Shown here: piece by piece, positions 40,399-49,340 of the stretch
Layout of the letters: every line of letters starts with the position of its first letter
Position numbering within the stretch: the stretch's first letter is position 1
DNA from: Stellaceae bacterium
GTDB lineage: Bacteria; Pseudomonadota; Alphaproteobacteria; ATCC43930; CGMCC-115725
DNA: 64,000 nucleotides
Direction: 5' to 3'
NCBI GenBank assembly: GCA_035504235.1
Contig: DATJSH010000085.1
Location: 22 to 64,021, forward strand
Translations under genes and position numbers: made by a program
The notes under the pieces: generated by a model
Seen by the model: only the letters and a program-made list of their open reading frames with translations
Database searches by the model: none
Told to the model about the DNA's origin: nothing

Positions 40399-40938
40399 TC
40401 AGCAGCTTCCGCCGCCGAACCCGCGGCGCAGCGCGGTGTAGGCGGCGGGCTCGGTCGTCGCGCTCCAGAAGCACGAGAATTTGGGGTCGCCGCGCAGTTC
40501 GTGGTCGGCGAAGGCCAGCTGGGTGTCGAGCTGCGGGCAGCCGGGATAGCCGGCGAATTTTTGCAGCTGCTCGAGCCGCGCGCTGCTCCACTGGAAGAGG
40601 TAGTGATATCCACCCGGCCCGGCGGCGCAGGCACGGAACCCACTTTCGGTGCGGGCGTGCTCGACCATCGCCTGTATCTGGAAATCCTGGTAGCCGTGCT
40701 TGTGCAGCCAGTCGACGATCTCGGCATGCGCCGCTTCCGGAGTCGGCGCAGATGTTGGTTGCGGCGCCGGTTGCGTCGAAAAAACCGAAAGAAACGGCGC
40801 TGGTTGCGGCGGCATTGGCCCCGGCACCGCTGACCCCGGCACCGGCAATTTCAGCCCTTCGAAGACCGAACACGCCGACATCGACAGCATGATGGAAAGC
40901 CACGCGACGATCGCAGCGCCGTTTCGAACCCCCCTCAT
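40399..40938 (-). CDS. lipoprotein with phage-tail-lysozyme-like domain
   Basis: Lipobox LSMSAC, a Pro-rich linker, then MVEHARTESGFRACAAGPGGYHYLFQWSSARLEQL, which resembles the Phage_lysozyme2-type fold (assignment from memory). Confidence 0.55.
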   Translation of the reverse strand: MRGVRNGAAIVAWLSIMLSMSACSVFEGLKLPVPGSAVPGPMPPQPAPFLSVFSTQPAPQPTSAPTPEAAHAEIVDWLHKHGYQDFQIQAMVEHARTESGFRACAAGPGGYHYLFQWSSARLEQLQKFAGYPGCPQLDTQLAFADHELRGDPKFSCFWSATTEPAAYTALRRGFGGGSC

Positions 40939-41084
40939 GGGGCCGGGAGGCTAGTGCACAAGACGCGCAATCGCAACCCGTTGGCGTCCGCGGCCGAGAT
41001 TGTCCCAGAGGTTACGGTTGACCGAAACGTAAGCCTTGCTAACTTTTGCCGGCGGATTTCGAGCGCCCGTTTGAGGAGCGAGCC

Positions 41085-42377
41085 ATGAAGCTGATGTGGT
41101 TCCACCTGATGCCCTACACCGAGCTGCCCGACGATTTCCGGGAAAAGAACCCGTCAGTGTGGGTCGACATCCATTCCTCGCTGTTCGACCCGCGGCGAGC
41201 GCACCACATGTACAACGACTTTATGGACGAGCTCGAATACGCCGCGGAATGCGGCTTTGACGCTATCTGTGTCAACGAGCATCACTCGAACGGCTATGGG
41301 CTGATGCCGTCGCCAAATCTCATCGCCAGCTCGCTGGCGCGGCGAACCACCGACACGGCGCTCTGCATCCTCGGCAACAGCCTCGCGCTCTACAATCCGC
41401 CGACCCGCGTCGCCGAAGAGTTCGCGATGATCGACTGCATCTCGGGTGGGCGCTTGATCGCCGGCTTTCCGGTCGGGTCGCCGATGGACACCTGTTTTGC
41501 CTACGGGCAGAACCCGTCGATGCTGCGCGAGCGCTATTACGAAGCGCACGACCTCGTCAAAAAGGCGTGGACCGCGCCCGACACCTTTGCCTTCAACGGC
41601 CGCTTCAACCAGCAGCGCTATGTTAATGTCTGGCCGCGTCCGATCCAGCGGCCGCACCCGCCGATCTGGATCCCTGGCGGCGGCTCGGTCGAGACCTGGC
41701 AGTGGTGCGCCGAAATGGACTATGTCTACTGCTATCTGTCGTATTACGGCTACAAGGCCGGGAAATCGACGATGGACGGGTTCTGGGCCGAGATGGCGAA
41801 GCTCGGCAAGGACCGGAACCCGAACCGCGCCGGCTTCCTGCAATTTGTCGGCGTCGCCGAGACGCGCGAGCAGGCGATGGAGCTTTACGCCGAGCCGGCC
41901 GAGTATTTCTACGGCCGCTGCCTCCACATCGACCCGCGCTTTGCCGGCCCGCCGGGCTACGCGACCGAGGAGACGCAGCGGCGCGGCATCAAGGGCATGG
42001 TCTCGCAAGCCGCCGACAACAGCCGCAACAACGAGCACCAGCGCTACGAGACCAAGTTCGCGGCGCTCGCGCGCGAGATGGACTCGATCGTCGACAAGGG
42101 CTACGTGATCGTCGGCTCGCCCGACGAGGTCGTCGAGCAACTGACCGAGGTCGCGACCAACCTCAATGTTGGCCACCTGATGATGCTTTTGCAGTTCGGC
42201 AACATGTCGAAGGAGCTCGCCAAGTACAACACGGCGCTCTTCGCCGAGAAGGTCATGCCGCGGTTGAAACACGTCCATTCGCAATGGGAAGACCGTTGGT
42301 GGCCGCGGCCCATGCACAAGGCCGAGCGCGCCGCTCCGGCGTCGTTCGTGCCGATCGCGCAGGCGGCGGCGGAGTAG
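41085..42377 (+). CDS. LLM-class flavin-dependent oxidoreductase
   Basis: ATG at 41085. MKLMWFHLMPYTELPDDF and NEHH motifs. Paralog-like to the ORF at 4895. Confidence 0.82.
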   Translation: MKLMWFHLMPYTELPDDFREKNPSVWVDIHSSLFDPRRAHHMYNDFMDELEYAAECGFDAICVNEHHSNGYGLMPSPNLIASSLARRTTDTALCILGNSLALYNPPTRVAEEFAMIDCISGGRLIAGFPVGSPMDTCFAYGQNPSMLRERYYEAHDLVKKAWTAPDTFAFNGRFNQQRYVNVWPRPIQRPHPPIWIPGGGSVETWQWCAEMDYVYCYLSYYGYKAGKSTMDGFWAEMAKLGKDRNPNRAGFLQFVGVAETREQAMELYAEPAEYFYGRCLHIDPRFAGPPGYATEETQRRGIKGMVSQAADNSRNNEHQRYETKFAALAREMDSIVDKGYVIVGSPDEVVEQLTEVATNLNVGHLMMLLQFGNMSKELAKYNTALFAEKVMPRLKHVHSQWEDRWWPRPMHKAERAAPASFVPIAQAAAE

Positions 42378-42386
42378 TCGCCGGCC

Positions 42387-43169
42387 ATGGCTGAACCCAA
42401 GATCACCACAGTCGATGTCAACGGCTTTTCCTGCCGGGTGTGGACCGCCGGCTCAGGACCGAAACTGGGCTTTCTCGCGGGGTTCGGCGGCTTGCCGCAG
42501 TGGGTGCCGTTTCTCGACGCGCTGGCAAAAGAACGCACGGTGATCGTGCCCTCGCTCCCCGGCTTTCCCGGCGGTGAGCGCGGTCATGTCGTGCTCGACG
42601 GCCATCTCGACTGGCTGCTGGCGACGCGGCAGCTGCTGGAAGGGGCGGGGCTCGCAGCCGCCGACCTCGCCGGAAGCTCGGTCGGCGGCTCGCTGGCTGC
42701 AGAGATTGCGGCGCTATGGCCGCAAATGGTCAAGCGCCTAGCGCTGATCGCGCCGTTCGGCTTGTTCGACGAAAACGACCCGGCGACCGACCCCTGGGCG
42801 CAGCGCCCCGGCGATGTCGCCGGCCTGTTCTGCGCCGACCCGGCGAAATGGGAAGCGCTCAAGGCCGAGCCCGAAGGCCATAACGACCCGGAATGGCCGA
42901 TCGAACAGGTCCGCGCCAGCGAGGCCGCGGCCCGCATCTTCTGGCCCCTCGGCAACACCAAGCTCGAAAAGCGGTTGCCGCTCATCGCCGCGCCGACTCT
43001 GCTTGTCTGGGGCAGCGAGGACCGCATCATGCCGCGCAGCTACGCCGACAAGTTCGCCCGTGGCATCAAGGTCAAGACCGCAATCAAAATCGTTCCTGGC
43101 GCCGGCCACCTCGCCGAAATCGACAAGCCCGAGGAGACGGCAGCGGCGATCCTTGACTGGACGCGCTGA
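42387..43169 (+). CDS. alpha/beta hydrolase
   Basis: Alpha/beta fold with a GSSVGG nucleophile elbow and a C-terminal GAGH. Starts 10 nt after the LLM gene. Confidence 0.8.
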   Translation: MAEPKITTVDVNGFSCRVWTAGSGPKLGFLAGFGGLPQWVPFLDALAKERTVIVPSLPGFPGGERGHVVLDGHLDWLLATRQLLEGAGLAAADLAGSSVGGSLAAEIAALWPQMVKRLALIAPFGLFDENDPATDPWAQRPGDVAGLFCADPAKWEALKAEPEGHNDPEWPIEQVRASEAAARIFWPLGNTKLEKRLPLIAAPTLLVWGSEDRIMPRSYADKFARGIKVKTAIKIVPGAGHLAEIDKPEETAAAILDWTR

Positions 43170-43261
43170 GCGCCGCCCCAGAAAAAATTGAATAAAAGCT
43201 CGTTGTGCTAGCCATCGATTTGCGCAACCCTAGGTCGCAATAGACCTGGGGGAGGGCGGCG

Positions 43262-46200
43262 ATGGCTCGGGGACAACAGACCAGCCGACGCGAGCTGTCC
43301 GAGGTCCTGGCGGAAGAATACAAGGCGATCACGGAGGAGTGGAGGGTTAACGCCGCGGTCGGAGACAAGCAGTCGATCGACATCGCCCTTGATGCCGCGG
43401 GAGATGCGGCGCGCGGCCGCACCCCAAGCCCCCCGAGTGATCCGGACATGGCAGCCGAACAAGCTCGGCGGAAATTGCTCTACAAGGTCGGCCACCAGCT
43501 CGACCTAAGCGCCCTCTGCTTGTCGGGCGGAGGCATCCGCAGCGCCGCGATTTCGCTCGGAGTCATTCAGGGGCTGGCGGATCACGGTGTGCTCGACAAG
43601 TTCGACTATCTCTCGACGGTTTCGGGCGGCGGCTATATCGGCTCGTGGCTGTCGGCCTGGCTCTACCGCGTGCGCAGGGCGGGCGGCTCGTCGGACGATG
43701 TACTGAAGCGACTCGGGTCCCGCAGGAACGCGCCGGATGTGGAGGTGCCGCCGCTCAATCATCTGCGTGAATACAGCAACTATCTTACCCCGAAGCTCGG
43801 AATTTTTTCCGCCGACACCTGGGCAGCGCTGGCGATCGTGCTGCGCAATATCGTCGTCAATTGGCTCATCCTGCTCCCGGTGCTGGCGATCCTTGTGACA
43901 GTGGTGAAGCTGATTGCGCTGGGGCTGACCGCCCCGGCGCCTCACACGCCCGCGCAGGCACTGGATCAGTGGTCCTTGGCGCAGGAGATAGAACTTAGCG
44001 TCGCGATCCTGTGCTGGGCCTGCGGCGGTGTCGGGCTGGGTTATAAGCTGTACCGGCTTTACCGGCCGGCCTATAGCCAGATCCGCCGGGGTCCGGAGCA
44101 GTTGGCCGACCAGAAAGCGATGAGGGCCGCACAGGGCTGGTTCATCTGGTTTAGCCTGTTGCCGGCCGTGATCGGCGGGTTCTGTTTTGTTTGGCTTGCC
44201 TACAACAAGTTGACGCCTGGACTTTTTTCCAACGTATTCAGTGATTTATGGCCAAATCTCGTTGCCATTGCGGCGGCGGCGCGCCATGCAATCGCCCAGT
44301 CCTTGCCCGCTGAGATCACCGCGTTCATTTCGGCCCATGTGCCCGATACATTTCCCGCGCTGGTCGTATTCGCGCTTTGTGTCTACGCTCTGGCGCTGGT
44401 AATCGGGTGGACCTTCGCGGCGGTAGCCGCCATGCAACAGGTCTTTCACCGTCCGGCCCCCATTGCTCCTGCGGCGAACGCTCCGGCCCCGAATCCTCCT
44501 GCGGCGAACTTTCCCGCGCAACCGCAGCTCAACGGAGCGAGGCGTGCCTGGGCAGCCATATGCCGATGGTTTGTGGTCATGCCCCGGTGGTTTGCCGCCA
44601 CCTTTATGGGTCGATGGTTGGCGGCCATCTTGGGCATCGGTCGGGCTCGCGCGTTCAACATCCACTTGAGCGACTTCTTGAGTTGGATCATCGCGGTTCT
44701 TGTGTTCGCGGCGATGATTTGTGGTGGCGCTTTCGTCATTAATGCGATGGGCGCCCCGATAACGGGAGGCGTTTCCATCGGAGGCGTCACGGTTCAGCGC
44801 GAGGCGCTGATCGCGATTTTCGGTGTGCCGTGGTTTCTTCTGACGACAATCCTGGCGCATGACATCTATCTGCTGCTCGACAGCACCTCGCCATACGGCG
44901 ACGTCGAGCGCGAATGGCTGGCCCGCGGCAGCGGCTGGCATTTCATTGTCGGGCTGGCCTGGATCATCCTGTTCACGGTCGTGCTGCTCGGGCCGGCGGT
45001 CTACTATTTCATGCCGCAAACCGTTCACGTCGTGACCGTCATCAGCGGCACGGTGACGGCGCTGCTCGGCAAGAGCGGCCTGACCTCCGCCTCCGGGGAG
45101 AAAAGCGACTGGAAGGGCCTCGCCGCCAATATCGGTCTGGCGGTGGCCGGCCCGATCTTCGCGGTTCTGCTGCTCATTCTGCTGTCGGTGGTGATCGACT
45201 GGGTGGTCTTTGGCTATCACTACCCCTGCCTGCCGACAGACAGCCACTGGGATCGCTGTCGCAGCGGTGACTGGCTGTTCAGTCTCCGATGGCTCCTGCC
45301 ATTGGGAATTTCGGTGCTAACCCTGCTGCTTGCCGATCGCTGTTCTAACGTAAATGCGTTCTCGCTCCATGCCGTCTATCGCAACCGGCTGATACGCTGC
45401 TTCCTCGGCGGGGCGCGCGATCCGCATCGCCATCCGGACGGTTTCACCGATTTCGACTGGGACGACGATCTGCGCGTCGCCGAATTATGGCGGTTGCCGC
45501 GTTTGAGAGGAGAATGGCGGCCGTTCCACGTTATCAACATGACGCTCAACGTCGCCGACACCAACCGCCTCTCCTGGCAGCAGCGCAAGGCGATGCCGTT
45601 TTCCGTAAGCCCACTCTCCTGCGGCAACGCCGATCTCGGCTATCGTCCGACTTGGTGCTATGCCGGGCCGCCACCCAAGCATGATCCGCAGCCTGATCAA
45701 GAAATCCGCTCCGGGATTTCCCTCGGCACAGCCATGGCGATCTCAGGTGCGGCGGTCAGCTCGAATATGGGCTACCATTCATCGATGTCGCTGTCGTTCT
45801 TGCTGACGTTCTTCAACGTTCGGCTGGGCGTGTGGCTCGGGAACCCCGGCAAAGCAGGGCAAAGGTCCTTTGTTTCGTTGGCCCCCCAGCCTTACGAGGC
45901 AGAGGGCCCCCCTTTCGCCGTTCGACCGCTCGTAAGCGAGTTGTTTGGGCTGACATCGGGTGACAGCCAATTTGTCTACCTCTCCGATGGCGGACATTTC
46001 GAGAATTTGGGTCTTTACGAGATGGTCCGGCGGCGGTGCCGGTGGATTGTCGTCGTCGATGCCGGCCAAGATGCGTCGCGTGGGTACGCCGACTTGGGCA
46101 ATGCGGTGCGCAAGATCTGGATCGACCTCGGTATCCGGGTGACCTTTGATAATTCGCCGCTGTTGAAAGCCGACAAGGATGCCAAGCCCGATGGTGTGCC

Positions 46201-46585
46201 CTATTTTGCGATCGGCACGGTGAACTATCTCAGCGACCCGCCAGTCGATATCCGGCAGGCGGACGGGAGTGTCGTGCAGGGGTTGGCAAAGGGAAAAATC
46301 CTCTATCTGAAGGCTGTAGTGCGCGGCGATGAGGGCGCGGCCGATGTGATCGCCTATAAGCGGGCCAATAAACCGTTCCCCGACCAATCGACCGCCGATC
46401 AATGGTTCGACGAGTCGCAATTCGAAGCGTATCGCCGGCTCGGACAACTGATGGTCGAGCGCATCGTCGGCGCTGCGACCAGTCCGGTGCGCGATTTCTC
46501 ATCGCTGTTCGGCGGGCTTAAGGGCGTCGACCCGAGCAAGGTGCCGCCACCATCGGCTGGCGCCGGGGTATCTGGAGCCACCTGA
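43262..46585 (+). CDS. patatin/cPLA2-like phospholipase domain protein with a large internal polytopic membrane region
   Basis: GGGIRS oxyanion motif (aa 89-94), TVSGG serine motif (S121, nt 43622-43624) and LSDGGHFENLG aspartate motif (D909, nt 45986-45988). About 10-12 hydrophobic helices lie between aa ~185 and ~700. RBS GGGGGAGGG. Confidence 0.8.
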   Translation: MARGQQTSRRELSEVLAEEYKAITEEWRVNAAVGDKQSIDIALDAAGDAARGRTPSPPSDPDMAAEQARRKLLYKVGHQLDLSALCLSGGGIRSAAISLGVIQGLADHGVLDKFDYLSTVSGGGYIGSWLSAWLYRVRRAGGSSDDVLKRLGSRRNAPDVEVPPLNHLREYSNYLTPKLGIFSADTWAALAIVLRNIVVNWLILLPVLAILVTVVKLIALGLTAPAPHTPAQALDQWSLAQEIELSVAILCWACGGVGLGYKLYRLYRPAYSQIRRGPEQLADQKAMRAAQGWFIWFSLLPAVIGGFCFVWLAYNKLTPGLFSNVFSDLWPNLVAIAAAARHAIAQSLPAEITAFISAHVPDTFPALVVFALCVYALALVIGWTFAAVAAMQQVFHRPAPIAPAANAPAPNPPAANFPAQPQLNGARRAWAAICRWFVVMPRWFAATFMGRWLAAILGIGRARAFNIHLSDFLSWIIAVLVFAAMICGGAFVINAMGAPITGGVSIGGVTVQREALIAIFGVPWFLLTTILAHDIYLLLDSTSPYGDVEREWLARGSGWHFIVGLAWIILFTVVLLGPAVYYFMPQTVHVVTVISGTVTALLGKSGLTSASGEKSDWKGLAANIGLAVAGPIFAVLLLILLSVVIDWVVFGYHYPCLPTDSHWDRCRSGDWLFSLRWLLPLGISVLTLLLADRCSNVNAFSLHAVYRNRLIRCFLGGARDPHRHPDGFTDFDWDDDLRVAELWRLPRLRGEWRPFHVINMTLNVADTNRLSWQQRKAMPFSVSPLSCGNADLGYRPTWCYAGPPPKHDPQPDQEIRSGISLGTAMAISGAAVSSNMGYHSSMSLSFLLTFFNVRLGVWLGNPGKAGQRSFVSLAPQPYEAEGPPFAVRPLVSELFGLTSGDSQFVYLSDGGHFENLGLYEMVRRRCRWIVVVDAGQDASRGYADLGNAVRKIWIDLGIRVTFDNSPLLKADKDAKPDGVPYFAIGTVNYLSDPPVDIRQADGSVVQGLAKGKILYLKAVVRGDEGAADVIAYKRANKPFPDQSTADQWFDESQFEAYRRLGQLMVERIVGAATSPVRDFSSLFGGLKGVDPSKVPPPSAGAGVSGAT

Positions 46586-46630: not shown

Positions 46631-46965
46631 GTGACCGCCGGAGTAAGCCTGCCAACGACGCCTTCCGACTACGCCAACAAATACAAGACCGTGCGCTTCG
46701 AGCGGTCGAACGGCCTCCTGTAGATGACGCTGCGTACCGATGGCGGCTCGCTGCGCCGGGGTTTCTGCCGCATGGCGAGTTGCCCGACGCGTTCTACGAT
46801 GTCGGCGACGACCGCGAGAACCGGGTCGTCATCATCACCGGCATGGGCGCTGAATTCGCCGGGCCGCGCGCCAATCCCGGCACATGGTTCTTCCCGACGC
46901 GGCCGACGATCGAGACGGTCGATCGCATCCACTGGGAAGGCATCTCTTGATAAAGCTTCTCGATA
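46631..46965 (+). pseudogene. decayed enoyl-CoA hydratase/isomerase (crotonase) family gene fragment
   Basis: Reading from GTG at 46631 gives ...DYANKYKTVRFERSNGLL, an in-frame TAG at 46721, then MTLRTDGGSLR. A frameshift restores LPHGELPDAFYDVGDDRENRVVIITGMGAEFAGPR...VDRIHWEG. A second shift gives LLIKLLDIDA. The remainder of the gene is missing. Confidence 0.55.
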
Positions 46966-47040: not shown

Positions 47041-48285
47041 TCATTCCGTCGGCGGCCGCACTAGCGGACATTTCGACTGGGCCAGGGGCTCGAAGGCCTC
47101 GTCGCCGGGAATCGTCGAAACGAGTTGTAGGTCATCCCAGTCGCCATGGGATTCAGCCGGCGTCTTGACGCGGAACAGATACATGTCGTGGACCATCAGC
47201 CCGTCGGCGCGGATGACGCCGTTATGTGCGAAAAAGTCGTTGATCGGCGCGGTACGCATCGCCTTCATCACGGGTACCGTCGCGTCGGTGCCGGCCTTCG
47301 CCACGGCCTGGAGATAATGCATCGTCGACGAATACGTTCCGGCCTGCAGCGCGTTCGGCATTGCTCCTGTGCGGGCGAAAAACCGCTTCGACCAATCGCG
47401 CGCTGCGTCACTTTGATCCCAGTAGAAAGATTCGCTCAGCATCATGCCTTGCGTCGTCCCGAGGCCCAAATCATGCACCTGATTGATGCGCATCGACAGG
47501 CCGGCAAAGGTTTGCGGGCCGGGGATCATCTTCAGCTCCGCGGCCTTCCTGACCGCGTTGGTCGTATCGGCGCCGCCATCCGCGAGACCGACGACTTCGG
47601 CGCCCGATTGCTGTGCCTGCAGCAGGTATGACGAGAAATCCTCAGCGCCGAGCGGGTGGCGCGCATGGCCGACCACCGTGCCGCCGCTGGCCTTGACGAC
47701 GGCCGCAGTTTCGTCTTCGAGGTCATAACCGTAGCTGTAGTCGACGGTCACGAAAAACCAGCTTTTGCCGCCATTGGCGACGATCGCCTTGCCGAGCGTG
47801 TGGGCGATTGCGTAGGTGTCGTTGGTGTAGTGTACCGAGGTCGCGGTGCAGCCCTCCTGCGTCAGCCGGTTCGCGCCCGGCGCGTTGAGGATGACGATCT
47901 TGTTGCGCGTATCGGCGATGCGCTGGACGAAGAGCGCCTCCGAGGAGCCGGCGACATCCATGATCGCATCGACATGCTGGTGGTCGAACCAGTCGCGCGC
48001 GATCGTCGCGGCCTGGTCGGGGTTGTCGTGATGGTCGGCGACGACGACCTGTATCGGTGCCCCGAGCACTTTACCGCCAAAATCCTCGACCGCCATCTTG
48101 GCCGCGGTCTCGCTGCCCTTGCCGGTGAGCTCTGCATAGGGGCCGCTCATGTCGAGGATGAGGCCGAGCTTGACGACGTCGTCCGAGACCGCGCCTGGCG
48201 CAGGCGGTTGCGCGCCGGCGCCGGCGACGCAAAGCGCCGCGGTGAGCGCCAAGCTGCCACCCAGGATATGAGCTCTTATTCGCAT
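47041..48285 (-). CDS. ABC transporter substrate-binding protein (branched-chain amino acid / LivJ-like, type 1)
   Basis: ATG at 48285 gives a signal peptide (ALTAALCVAGAGAQ). Type-1 periplasmic binding protein features. Confidence 0.85.
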   Translation of the reverse strand: MRIRAHILGGSLALTAALCVAGAGAQPPAPGAVSDDVVKLGLILDMSGPYAELTGKGSETAAKMAVEDFGGKVLGAPIQVVVADHHDNPDQAATIARDWFDHQHVDAIMDVAGSSEALFVQRIADTRNKIVILNAPGANRLTQEGCTATSVHYTNDTYAIAHTLGKAIVANGGKSWFFVTVDYSYGYDLEDETAAVVKASGGTVVGHARHPLGAEDFSSYLLQAQQSGAEVVGLADGGADTTNAVRKAAELKMIPGPQTFAGLSMRINQVHDLGLGTTQGMMLSESFYWDQSDAARDWSKRFFARTGAMPNALQAGTYSSTMHYLQAVAKAGTDATVPVMKAMRTAPINDFFAHNGVIRADGLMVHDMYLFRVKTPAESHGDWDDLQLVSTIPGDEAFEPLAQSKCPLVRPPTE

Positions 48286-49247
48286 GATGCCGTGTATGGC
48301 TCTTCGTAGATCGCGGTGTACACGATTCCGTCGTCTTTGACATAGCCGCGATACATGCCAGCGCAATTGAACGGCAGCGCCAGCGTGCCGTCATGCCCAA
48401 CGGCGACAAGGCCGCCGGAGCCGCCGACCGCACGAAGCTCGACGACAACCGCCCGCGCTGCGTCGACGAGTCCCAGCCCGCCATGCGCGATCCGCGCCGC
48501 GAGCTCGTGCGCGGCGCTGTAGCGGATGAAGAGTTCGCCATGTCCGGTGGCGGACACCGCGCAGGTCGCATTGTCGGCAAAGGTGCCGGCGCCGATGATC
48601 GGACTGTCACCGACCCGCCCGGGCAGCTTGCCGGTCATCCCGCCCGTCGAGGTCGCCGCCGCGAGATTGCCGGCCCGGTCTCGGGCTACCGCGCCGACCG
48701 TGCCGTGACGACGCGATTCGTCCGCATCGACCCGCCCGGCGCGCTCCTGCTCGAGCGTCTCGGTAAGCGCTCGCCAGCGCGCCTCGGTGAAGAAATAATC
48801 TTGGTCTGCAAAGGCGAGCCCGGCTTCGCGGCAGAACGCCGTCGCGCCCTCGCCGGTCAGCAACACGTGCGGCGATCGTTCCATGACCGCGCGTGCCGCC
48901 AACACCGGGTTTTTCGGCCCGAAAATCCCGGCGACCGCACCGGCGCGGCGGTCGTGCCCGTCCATCACCGCAGCGTCCATCTCTTGGCCGCCGGCGCGGG
49001 TGAAGACGGCGCCGCGCCCCGCGTTGAACAGCTCGTCGTCCTCGAGCGCACAGACTGCCTGGGTCACCGCATCGAGCGCGCCGCCGTCGCGTGCAAGGAC
49101 ATCGCGGCCGGCGGCAAGCGCGCGGGCGAGGCCGGCGCGGTAAAGCGCATCGCGCTCGGCGCTCATCTCGGCATGCTTCAGCGTTCCGGCGCCGCCGTGA
49201 ATGGCGAGGGCGTAGCCGTTGCCGCCGCTAATCGCGCTGTCGTGCAT
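48276..49247 (-). CDS. isoaspartyl peptidase / L-asparaginase (Ntn hydrolase)
   Basis: ATG at 49247 with a GAGGGAAG RBS. IHGGAGT is present, as is the autoprocessing nucleophile context HGTVGAVARD. Confidence 0.88.
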   Translation of the reverse strand: MHDSAISGGNGYALAIHGGAGTLKHAEMSAERDALYRAGLARALAAGRDVLARDGGALDAVTQAVCALEDDELFNAGRGAVFTRAGGQEMDAAVMDGHDRRAGAVAGIFGPKNPVLAARAVMERSPHVLLTGEGATAFCREAGLAFADQDYFFTEARWRALTETLEQERAGRVDADESRRHGTVGAVARDRAGNLAAATSTGGMTGKLPGRVGDSPIIGAGTFADNATCAVSATGHGELFIRYSAAHELAARIAHGGLGLVDAARAVVVELRAVGGSGGLVAVGHDGTLALPFNCAGMYRGYVKDDGIVYTAIYEEPYTASCE

Positions 49248-49340
49248 ATCTTCCCTCAAGCGCCCGACGTGAAATGGGGCGCAGGCCTGTTTTCGGCAAT
49301 CAACTTTCCGCGATTACGGGTATGGCGGTATTGTTGGGGG

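Follow-up and report, generated by a model that had tools for sequence, protein, structure and literature searches.

A candidate integral-membrane cPLA2-type acyl hydrolase with a catalytic domain split by a polytopic membrane region, encoded in a wetland metagenome contig of a Stellaceae bacterium

The stretch of DNA analysed here is a 64,000-nucleotide window (contig DATJSH010000085.1 of assembly GCA_035504235.1, positions 22 to 64,021 of the forward strand) that derives from a wetland metagenome and is assigned to a Stellaceae bacterium. It carries at 43262..46585 (+) an ATG-initiated coding sequence (CDS) of 1107 amino acids (aa), which an initial annotation had described as a lipase of the patatin/cPLA2 type with serine and aspartate motifs parted by a polytopic membrane region. 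The list of open reading frames (ORFs), the positions of the motifs and an alignment of homologues confirm the 1107-aa ORF with its split motifs, and we annotate the CDS as an integral-membrane cPLA2/patatin-type acyl hydrolase from the ORF itself, a match to the Pfam Patatin model, 6864 homologues of the same length class and an AlphaFold model. A Shine-Dalgarno-like GGGAGG, read directly from the sequence, lies at 43250..43255 (+), 6 nt 5' of the ATG. The N-terminal helical region, aa 1-80 (43262..43501, +), is modelled with helices at residues 12-24, 26-33, 39-52 and 61-80 and contains the motif LSxVLxEE, which begins a few residues after the ATG and is kept in the alignment of homologues, where the first 25 residues are conserved. 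Because these N-terminal residues are conserved we take the ATG at 43262 to be the true start; the public database entry for the protein (P0001, 1045 aa) begins at M63, 62 codons late, and skips window positions 43262-43447. A gene fusion or an assembly artefact as the origin of the split design was ruled out, the same architecture being present in thousands of clusters.

The motifs of the putative active site were compared in a 46-sequence alignment whose members are 39-68% identical to the query, and all three are invariant in it. SGGGIRS occupies aa 88-94 (nt 43523-43543), with the GGGIR of the oxyanion loop running from residue 89, and is followed by the nucleophile elbow STVSGGGY at aa 118-125 (nt 43613-43636), in which S121 is encoded at 43622-43624. 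The third motif, SDGGHFE, lies at aa 908-914 (nt 45983-46003), with DGG at 909-911 and the D909 codon at 45986-45988, and the initial placement of GGGIRS and TVSGG near the N-terminus and of DGG far downstream is thereby upheld. In the AlphaFold model a strand (116-119), S121 and a helix (122-139) form the predicted elbow geometry, and a strand (904-908) stands directly before D909. A profile alignment gives a spacing of 28 residues from R93 to S121, equal to that from R200 to S228 of cPLA2 alpha. The Pfam Patatin model (PF01734) matches aa 85-162 at 38.5 bits, with a cut-off of 27.7 (E 1.8e-9). Searches of NCBIfam, PADLOC and the PDB with the single protein sequence gave nothing significant, PDB sequence and profile searches gave weak, marginal N-terminal matches (E 0.16-0.5), and Pfam searches with the C-terminal piece alone and with the extension domains of relatives found nothing. 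No C2 domain was matched in Pfam, and the N-terminus is helical in the model.

Two pieces of the chain are predicted to build the catalytic domain. The N-terminal piece, aa 81-183 (43502..43810, +), would contribute strand 1, the oxyanion loop, strand 2 and the nucleophile elbow, as indicated by invariant columns, the Pfam Patatin match and both structural models. The C-terminal piece, aa 695-1075 (45344..46486, +), contains SDGGHFE and is delimited by invariant columns, the AlphaFold strand and the fold alignment of a model from which the transmembrane (TM) region was deleted. The full-length AlphaFold model has a mean predicted local distance difference test score (pLDDT) of 81.5 and a predicted template modelling score (pTM) of 0.81, with pLDDT >90 for most of aa 11-160. 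In the PDB it significantly matches human cPLA2 alpha and delta alone, in alignments of 413-585 columns that are too short to cover both flanks across the 510-residue insert. The TM-deleted construct joins aa 58-183 to 695-1075 and was modelled with natural full-length homologues as alignment rows. Its model is a single domain (pLDDT 80.3, pTM 0.87) with strands and helices as in the full-length model, and its ten best Foldseek matches are all cPLA2 alpha or delta, at probability 1.00 and E 8e-10 to 4e-6, over 558-595 columns (query-normalised score, TMq, 0.42-0.51). The compact patatin-fold enzymes CapV and PlpD align over ~485-542 columns (target-normalised score, TMt, 0.43-0.55), patatin and CapE are also matched, and ExoU and VipD align over ~240-285 columns only. 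The models predict that the two flanks form one domain of cPLA2/patatin type in which Ser and Asp are neighbours. Since cPLA2 alpha and delta are the top structural matches and the Arg-to-Ser spacing is the same, "cPLA2-like" is a better label than patatin. Pfam, AlphaFold and the fold matches together support the type of enzyme first proposed, with its two motifs on either side of a membrane region. In a subgroup of relatives (P0207, P0245, P0236 and P0263) the C-terminal catalytic piece contains a charged helical insert of ~250 aa, between FTGFD and PLHVVN, without a Pfam match.

Within the catalytic domain lies a membrane domain of ~510 aa with ~10 TM helices (aa 184-694; 43811..45343, +), delimited by hydropathy and the AlphaFold helices. 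Combining Kyte-Doolittle hydropathy with the model gives candidate TM helices at residues 188-222, 241-263, 292-314, 364-392, 470-494, 514-537, 557-582, 586-602, 619-649 and 672-693. In the N-in/C-in orientation the four inside loops hold 19 Lys+Arg vs 5 in the five outside loops, and two Cys fall in the predicted outside loop between TM9 and TM10. With ten candidate helices and this positive-inside pattern the region reads as membrane-spanning, close to the 10-12 helices originally counted. An even number of helices is required because the two catalytic pieces must meet, and we infer that both catalytic halves are cytoplasmic with ~10 TM helices between them. A soluble cap in place of a membrane domain was considered and rejected, given ten long hydrophobic helices and the positive-inside pattern. 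No Pfam or NCBIfam model covers aa 184-694. The Pro/Ala-rich insert of the initial annotation is real: the segment at 44447..44632 (+), where most homologues have gaps, lies in a predicted cytoplasmic loop, and in it a stretch rich in Pro and Ala (aa 396-424) is followed by a helix rich in Arg and Trp (aa 425-457). The Pro/Ala stretch (aa ~396-424) is disordered in the model (pLDDT<50) and missing from most aligned homologues, and part of it is encoded by a near-tandem duplication of 30 bp (44452-44509), for which Tandem Repeats Finder gives 1.9 copies at 89% match. The stretch is a low-complexity expansion.

Outside the catalytic motifs, conservation is highest in the juxtamembrane segments at TM1 and TM10 and in two predicted cytoplasmic loops. 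One of these loops, between TM6 and TM7, contains the motif GDxEREWLGRAxGW (aa 546-559; 44897..44938, +; placed by alignment and topology), in which R550, E551, W552, R555 and G558 are invariant and L553, G554 and W559 are conserved at >=90%; the other contains LLGKSxxTP. The segment at TM1 reads HLRxYSNYLTPxxG..D.W...RN..W..P, and the juxtamembrane helix that follows TM10 and begins the C-terminal piece has the invariant motif NxNxFSLHxxYRNRLxRxFLG. We regard these segments and loops as candidates for a portal or gate through which lipids would pass where the membrane and catalytic domains meet. Many relatives have N-terminal extensions of 160-330 aa that are charged, helical and without signal peptides, and in one subgroup two additional N-terminal TM helices are present, the count staying even. 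Three relatives (P0169, P0244 and P0260) share a C-terminal extension of ~300-330 aa with the motif FHAHPLNRGWMN, at the end of which a GNAT acetyltransferase domain is matched by Pfam in P0169 only. The charged N-terminal extensions and the C-terminal ones indicate a cytoplasmic location.

The design is widespread. A word-indexed search returned 6864 homologues among 8000 candidates, nearly all of 900-1100 aa, and a hidden Markov model (HMM) search of 1.84 billion cluster representatives (clusters at 50% identity) returned 9,991, 16,314 and 21,650 clusters at E<=1e-30, 1e-10 and 1e-3, respectively. The family, which the initial annotation had left for HMM searches to delimit, thus comprises 9,991 clusters at the strictest of these thresholds and extends over more than ten phyla. 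At least 593 species genomes have a copy, and the carriers include Alpha-, Beta-, Gamma- and Deltaproteobacteria, Nitrospira, Acidobacteriota, Gemmatimonadota, Bacteroidota, Verrucomicrobiota, Planctomycetota, Methylomirabilota and Chloroflexota. It is common in soil, wetland and rhizosphere bacteria, among them Bradyrhizobium, Methylobacterium, Azospirillum, Nitrospira and Acidobacteriota, and 40 plasmid records have a homologue, mostly megaplasmids of Rhizobiales, Methylobacterium and Burkholderiaceae. Contigs of a leaf-litter metatranscriptome cover almost the whole length of a Nitrospirillum-like homologue that is 39% identical to the lipase of the window, with a depth close to that of its neighbours, which weakly suggests that it is transcribed, DNA carry-over being possible; a search of RNA runs for a Nitrospira homologue found nothing. 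Database entries are annotated as "patatin-like phospholipase family protein" or "hypothetical protein". Neither the family nor a patatin/cPLA2 architecture split by a membrane domain was the subject of any paper met in our literature searches, and in the lipocone paper patatin appears just as an operon partner. The protein is already labelled generically in databases, and its interest lies mainly at the level of the family and not in this window.

Compared with known enzymes, the protein is most like the group IV cPLA2s (cPLA2 alpha, 1CJY; cPLA2 delta, 5IZ5), with which it shares a putative Ser-Asp dyad, an SGGGxR loop, the 28-residue Arg-to-Ser spacing and the best structural match. It also shares with them a long chain stretch between Ser and Asp, which in cPLA2 is the cap/lid. 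Unlike them it is bacterial, has no recruitment by C2 and Ca2+, carries the ~510-aa, ~10-TM insert and lacks a PLA2_B match, and identity is 12-16%. With the patatin-fold lipases, namely Pat17, CapV and CapE of the cyclic-oligonucleotide-based anti-phage signalling system (CBASS), ExoU, VipD and PlpD, it has in common the PF01734 match, GGGxR, the predicted Ser elbow and DGG, and its joined flanks align with CapV and PlpD along the whole length; these enzymes, in contrast, have contiguous domains of ~190-350 aa, are soluble, secreted or peripherally recruited, and are switched on by a partner, be it cyclic GMP-AMP (cGAMP), ubiquitin, Rab5 or an autotransporter. No cGAS/DncV-like nucleotidyltransferase (CD-NTase), secretion system or chaperone was found near the lipase gene. 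It differs from CapV of CBASS in having no adjoining CD-NTase and no match to a defence model, and from the secreted toxins ExoU and VipD in having ~10 TM helices and no secretion genes nearby. The protein has the predicted fold and the motifs of the patatin/cPLA2 superfamily, and lacks both the profile match and architecture of cPLA2 proper and the genomic context of CapV or ExoU.

Among membrane-bound enzymes, neuropathy target esterase (NTE, PNPLA6), a lysophospholipase/phospholipase in membrane-lipid homeostasis, is similar in being an integral-membrane member of the patatin superfamily with a catalytic domain that faces the cytoplasm, as is predicted here. NTE has an N-terminal TM anchor outside its catalytic domain together with domains that bind cyclic nucleotides; the protein described here, by contrast, carries its membrane domain within the catalytic domain and shows no recognisable regulatory domain. 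PlaF of Pseudomonas aeruginosa is an inner-membrane phospholipase A1 that remodels the cell's own glycerophospholipids, and is a functional analogue only; it is not a homologue, its fold is that of alpha/beta hydrolases, it has just one TM helix, and its catalytic domain faces the periplasm. To our knowledge every cPLA2/patatin enzyme characterised so far is either soluble or recruited peripherally, and its control is exerted on arrival at the membrane. The controls on recruitment are Ca2+ and C2 for cPLA2, ubiquitin for ExoU and cGAMP for CapV. Here the catalytic fold encloses a polytopic membrane domain of its own, and both its control and the access of substrate must therefore be different. 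Both the ~510-aa membrane domain and the ~400-aa C-terminal piece are without a Pfam model in a family of ~10,000 clusters; knowledge of the structure and of the substrate would establish a new membrane-protein fold and show how an interfacial lipase is wired into the bilayer, and could possibly reveal a widespread bacterial route of membrane-lipid turnover.

We consider it reasonably probable that the gene encodes a permanently membrane-integrated Ser-Asp lipid acyl hydrolase (a phospholipase A or lysophospholipase) of the cPLA2/patatin superfamily, with its active site next to its own membrane domain on the cytoplasmic side, that acts on the cell's own inner-leaflet lipids. In the mechanism we propose, S121 in the elbow and D909 would form the catalytic dyad, G89-G91 the oxyanion hole, and R93 would be the counterpart of the phosphate-binding Arg200 of cPLA2 alpha. 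The catalytic pieces would leave the membrane via the conserved juxtamembrane segments at TM1 and TM10, and since both exit there the active site should be placed right against the membrane domain on its cytoplasmic side. That domain would stand in for the Ca2+/C2-domain recruitment of cPLA2, and it appears, from its size and its conserved polar residues, to be more than an anchor; it probably presents or gates inner-leaflet lipids via the conserved cytoplasmic loops. The role would be turnover or remodelling of membrane lipids in soil and wetland bacteria, with vertical inheritance in this lineage, and such a lipid-remodelling role is plausible. We infer the topology, the position of the active site at the membrane face, the substrate and the physiological role.

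Several points weigh against this interpretation. As cPLA2-family enzymes can act as transacylases, the label "hydrolase" is uncertain. In the GxSxG motif an invariant Thr takes the place of the first Gly (TVSGG), the match to the Patatin profile is limited to positions 1-70 of 191, and Pfam PLA2_B (PF01735) is not matched at E<=1 by the whole protein or by the C-terminal piece alone. The single-domain result was obtained with a deletion construct. Two of the ten candidate helices (241-263 and 586-602) are weakly hydrophobic. One relative, P0229, has two C-terminal peptidoglycan-binding domains (aa ~1170-1292) with no TM helix between them and the catalytic domain, which fits a periplasmic catalytic domain. 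Lastly, the third-position GC content (GC3) of the lipase gene is 0.75 vs 0.78-0.87 in its neighbours. Each of the three alternatives weighed below is less supported than an inner-membrane hydrolase.

A more far-reaching form of the proposal, which we put forward as a tentative possibility, is that these proteins form an unrecognised class of integral-membrane cPLA2-type enzymes in which an unseen ~10-TM domain at the position of the cap/lid extracts, flips or gates lipids for a cytoplasmic Ser-Asp site, giving regulated membrane editing and, in some branches, trigger-activated self-lysis. Rather unlikely is a combined lipid transporter and enzyme, in which the 10-TM domain flips or extracts a specific lipid, for example an outer-leaflet lysophospholipid, which the cytoplasmic domain then deacylates or uses in transacylation, by a logic like that of LplT-Aas. 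A domain of ~510 aa with invariant R550, E551, W552, R555, G603 and S605 is more than a simple anchor needs, cPLA2-family domains have established lysophospholipase and transacylase activities, and some relatives have the long C-terminal extensions described above, with a GNAT domain detected in P0169. Against such a transporter, the membrane domain has no significant structural match to any transporter or flippase (GltPh, MATE and MurJ at probability <=0.06), is without a Pfam or NCBIfam model and gives no direct sign of transport.

We think it improbable that the protein is a self-contained suicide or defence effector, in which the membrane domain senses phage or envelope damage and frees the phospholipase on the cell's own inner membrane. 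Such an effector would be suited by the known roles of patatin-type lipases in defence and as toxins, by fold matches that include CapV and CapE, and by a solitary gene spread patchily over many phyla and megaplasmids. The lipase protein itself has no PADLOC match, and in order to view its wider context we took 80 loci with 252 flanking genes, comprising 120 immediate and 132 second or third neighbours. There is no conserved partner across the 80 loci, the most frequent neighbour family being found in 11, which reflects synteny within genera. Sorted by Pfam, the 120 immediate neighbours make up 111 families, none of more than 3 members, and the 132 more distant ones 149 families, none of more than 5, including DnaB, DNA ligase, Dus, malic enzyme and alanine racemase. 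The neighbours are mostly metabolic or housekeeping genes. A few flanking genes do match PADLOC models, which speaks for an effector, but these matches are scattered and mostly of generic ATPase, RecF/SMC and ThiF type, and no defence family recurs more than twice among the 252. Two further contexts inspected in detail are ordinary, one of them adjoining a possible mobile element. In addition, no homologue was found in the phage records searched, and synteny is retained in relatives down to 48% identity, unlike the fast turnover of defence islands. The defence or abortive module entertained by the initial annotation finds no support in these results. There is one exception to these contexts, which favours an effector: a distant paralogue of the same split design (L087) with defence-like neighbours on a conjugative plasmid of Bradyrhizobium, and a conflict role may apply to some branches of the family.

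This paralogue, on plasmid pBb323S2c of Bradyrhizobium barranii (157436-179855), has 879 aa, a shorter membrane region and 29-36% identity in the flanks. Its neighbours encode a JAB/MPN protein, a 403-aa patatin, a WYL protein, a helicase-related protein, a large ATPase and YaaC, an island of defence-like character that sets the paralogue apart from the main family.

A periplasmic catalytic domain (N-out/C-out) acting on outer-leaflet or envelope lipids is very unlikely, for although the peptidoglycan-binding domains of P0229 follow right after its catalytic domain and the gene is accompanied in Nitrospira loci by one for a patatin paralogue of lipoprotein type, the 187-aa N-terminal segment has no preceding signal peptide, the positive-inside count favours N-in/C-in, the charged N-terminal extensions of relatives likewise lack signal peptides and the GNAT domain of P0169 needs cytoplasmic acyl- or acetyl-CoA.

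In the Nitrospira-type loci (L023 8430-10064 and 8 others, mostly of Nitrospira) the lipase gene is preceded on the same strand, with a gap of ~84 bp, by a gene for a patatin-like paralogue of 544 aa that is not split and bears a lipoprotein-type signal (…LTGC). The paralogue aligns weakly to both motif regions, with ~205 residues between them, which agrees, as does the Arg-to-Ser spacing, with a single catalytic domain made of the two flanks.

Turning to the surroundings of the gene in the window, the Pfam assignments of its neighbours include a thiamine pyrophosphate enzyme, a lysozyme-like protein, a monooxygenase, a hydrolase, a substrate-binding protein and an asparaginase. Directly upstream are genes for a luciferase-like monooxygenase (41046-42377) and an alpha/beta hydrolase (42387-43169; the pair at 41046..43169, +), identified by Pfam and found in the same order in two relatives; the pair is not conserved in the 80 wider loci. 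Downstream of the lipase follow a remnant of an enoyl-CoA hydratase (ECH) gene, an ABC substrate-binding protein, an asparaginase and a major facilitator superfamily (MFS) transporter. The two relatives, in which the lipase protein is 48% and ~60% identical, share the order Phage_lysozyme2, luciferase-like monooxygenase and alpha/beta hydrolase, then the patatin gene, then ECH and, further on, substrate-binding protein, asparaginase and MFS transporter. The remnant (ECH_1; 46649..46941, +) was delimited by tblastn with the intact syntenic gene of the ~60%-identical relative (L082) and corresponds to the first ~98 of 257 codons, damaged by an in-frame stop, a frameshift and truncation. A 61-residue segment is 79% identical to the L082 gene, and another, at 38%, is in a different frame and contains the stop. 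Both relatives have an intact ECH gene and one or two extra genes downstream of the lipase (GFA and sulfatase, or an esterase), and since they carry these genes the lineage of the window appears to have lost a small gene block 3' of the lipase. The hydrolase, ECH and esterase genes that flank the lipase in this close lineage hint weakly at fatty-acid or ester metabolism.

The decayed downstream gene of the initial annotation is therefore real, in the form of this ECH remnant, and its AT-rich upstream spacer was overstated, as the 92-bp spacer has 57% GC and is mildly AT-rich. A scan of the flanking spacers for promoter-like and terminator-like sites gave none. The ORF has 61.9% GC vs 64.5% for the whole window. 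The local GC below 50% noted initially holds for single 60-nt lines, which go down to 48%, and not at a scale of 120 nt or longer, every 120-nt window having at least 53% and 500-nt windows 59-67%. Recent horizontal acquisition, which the initial annotation had inferred, was rejected on composition and synteny, the compositional shift being mild and the locus syntenic in the relatives at 48% and ~60% identity. Because two relatives keep the same gene arrangement, this stand-alone chromosomal gene appears from its sequence context to be an old resident of its site in the close lineage and not a recent import. A prophage or integrative-element context was also considered and rejected, the nearest tRNA gene (the sole one) being 30 kb off and no phage match being found.

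A few smaller observations concern the same neighbourhood. The window gene at 40399-40938 (-) has a product of 179 aa whose N-terminus is hydrophobic and which contains a Phage_lysozyme2 (phage tail lysozyme) domain; the presence of the gene at the same position in both relatives indicates a resident chromosomal gene and not prophage debris. In L082 (12664-13053) the lipase is called as an 896-aa protein followed by an overlapping ORF of 129 aa, probably owing to a long-read frameshift error and not to genuine truncation. The ORF of the substrate-binding protein (47041-48366, -) and the asparaginase gene (48276-49259, -) overlap by 91 nt; the former is 441 aa long here vs 416-431 aa in the relatives, and its true start is probably further in.

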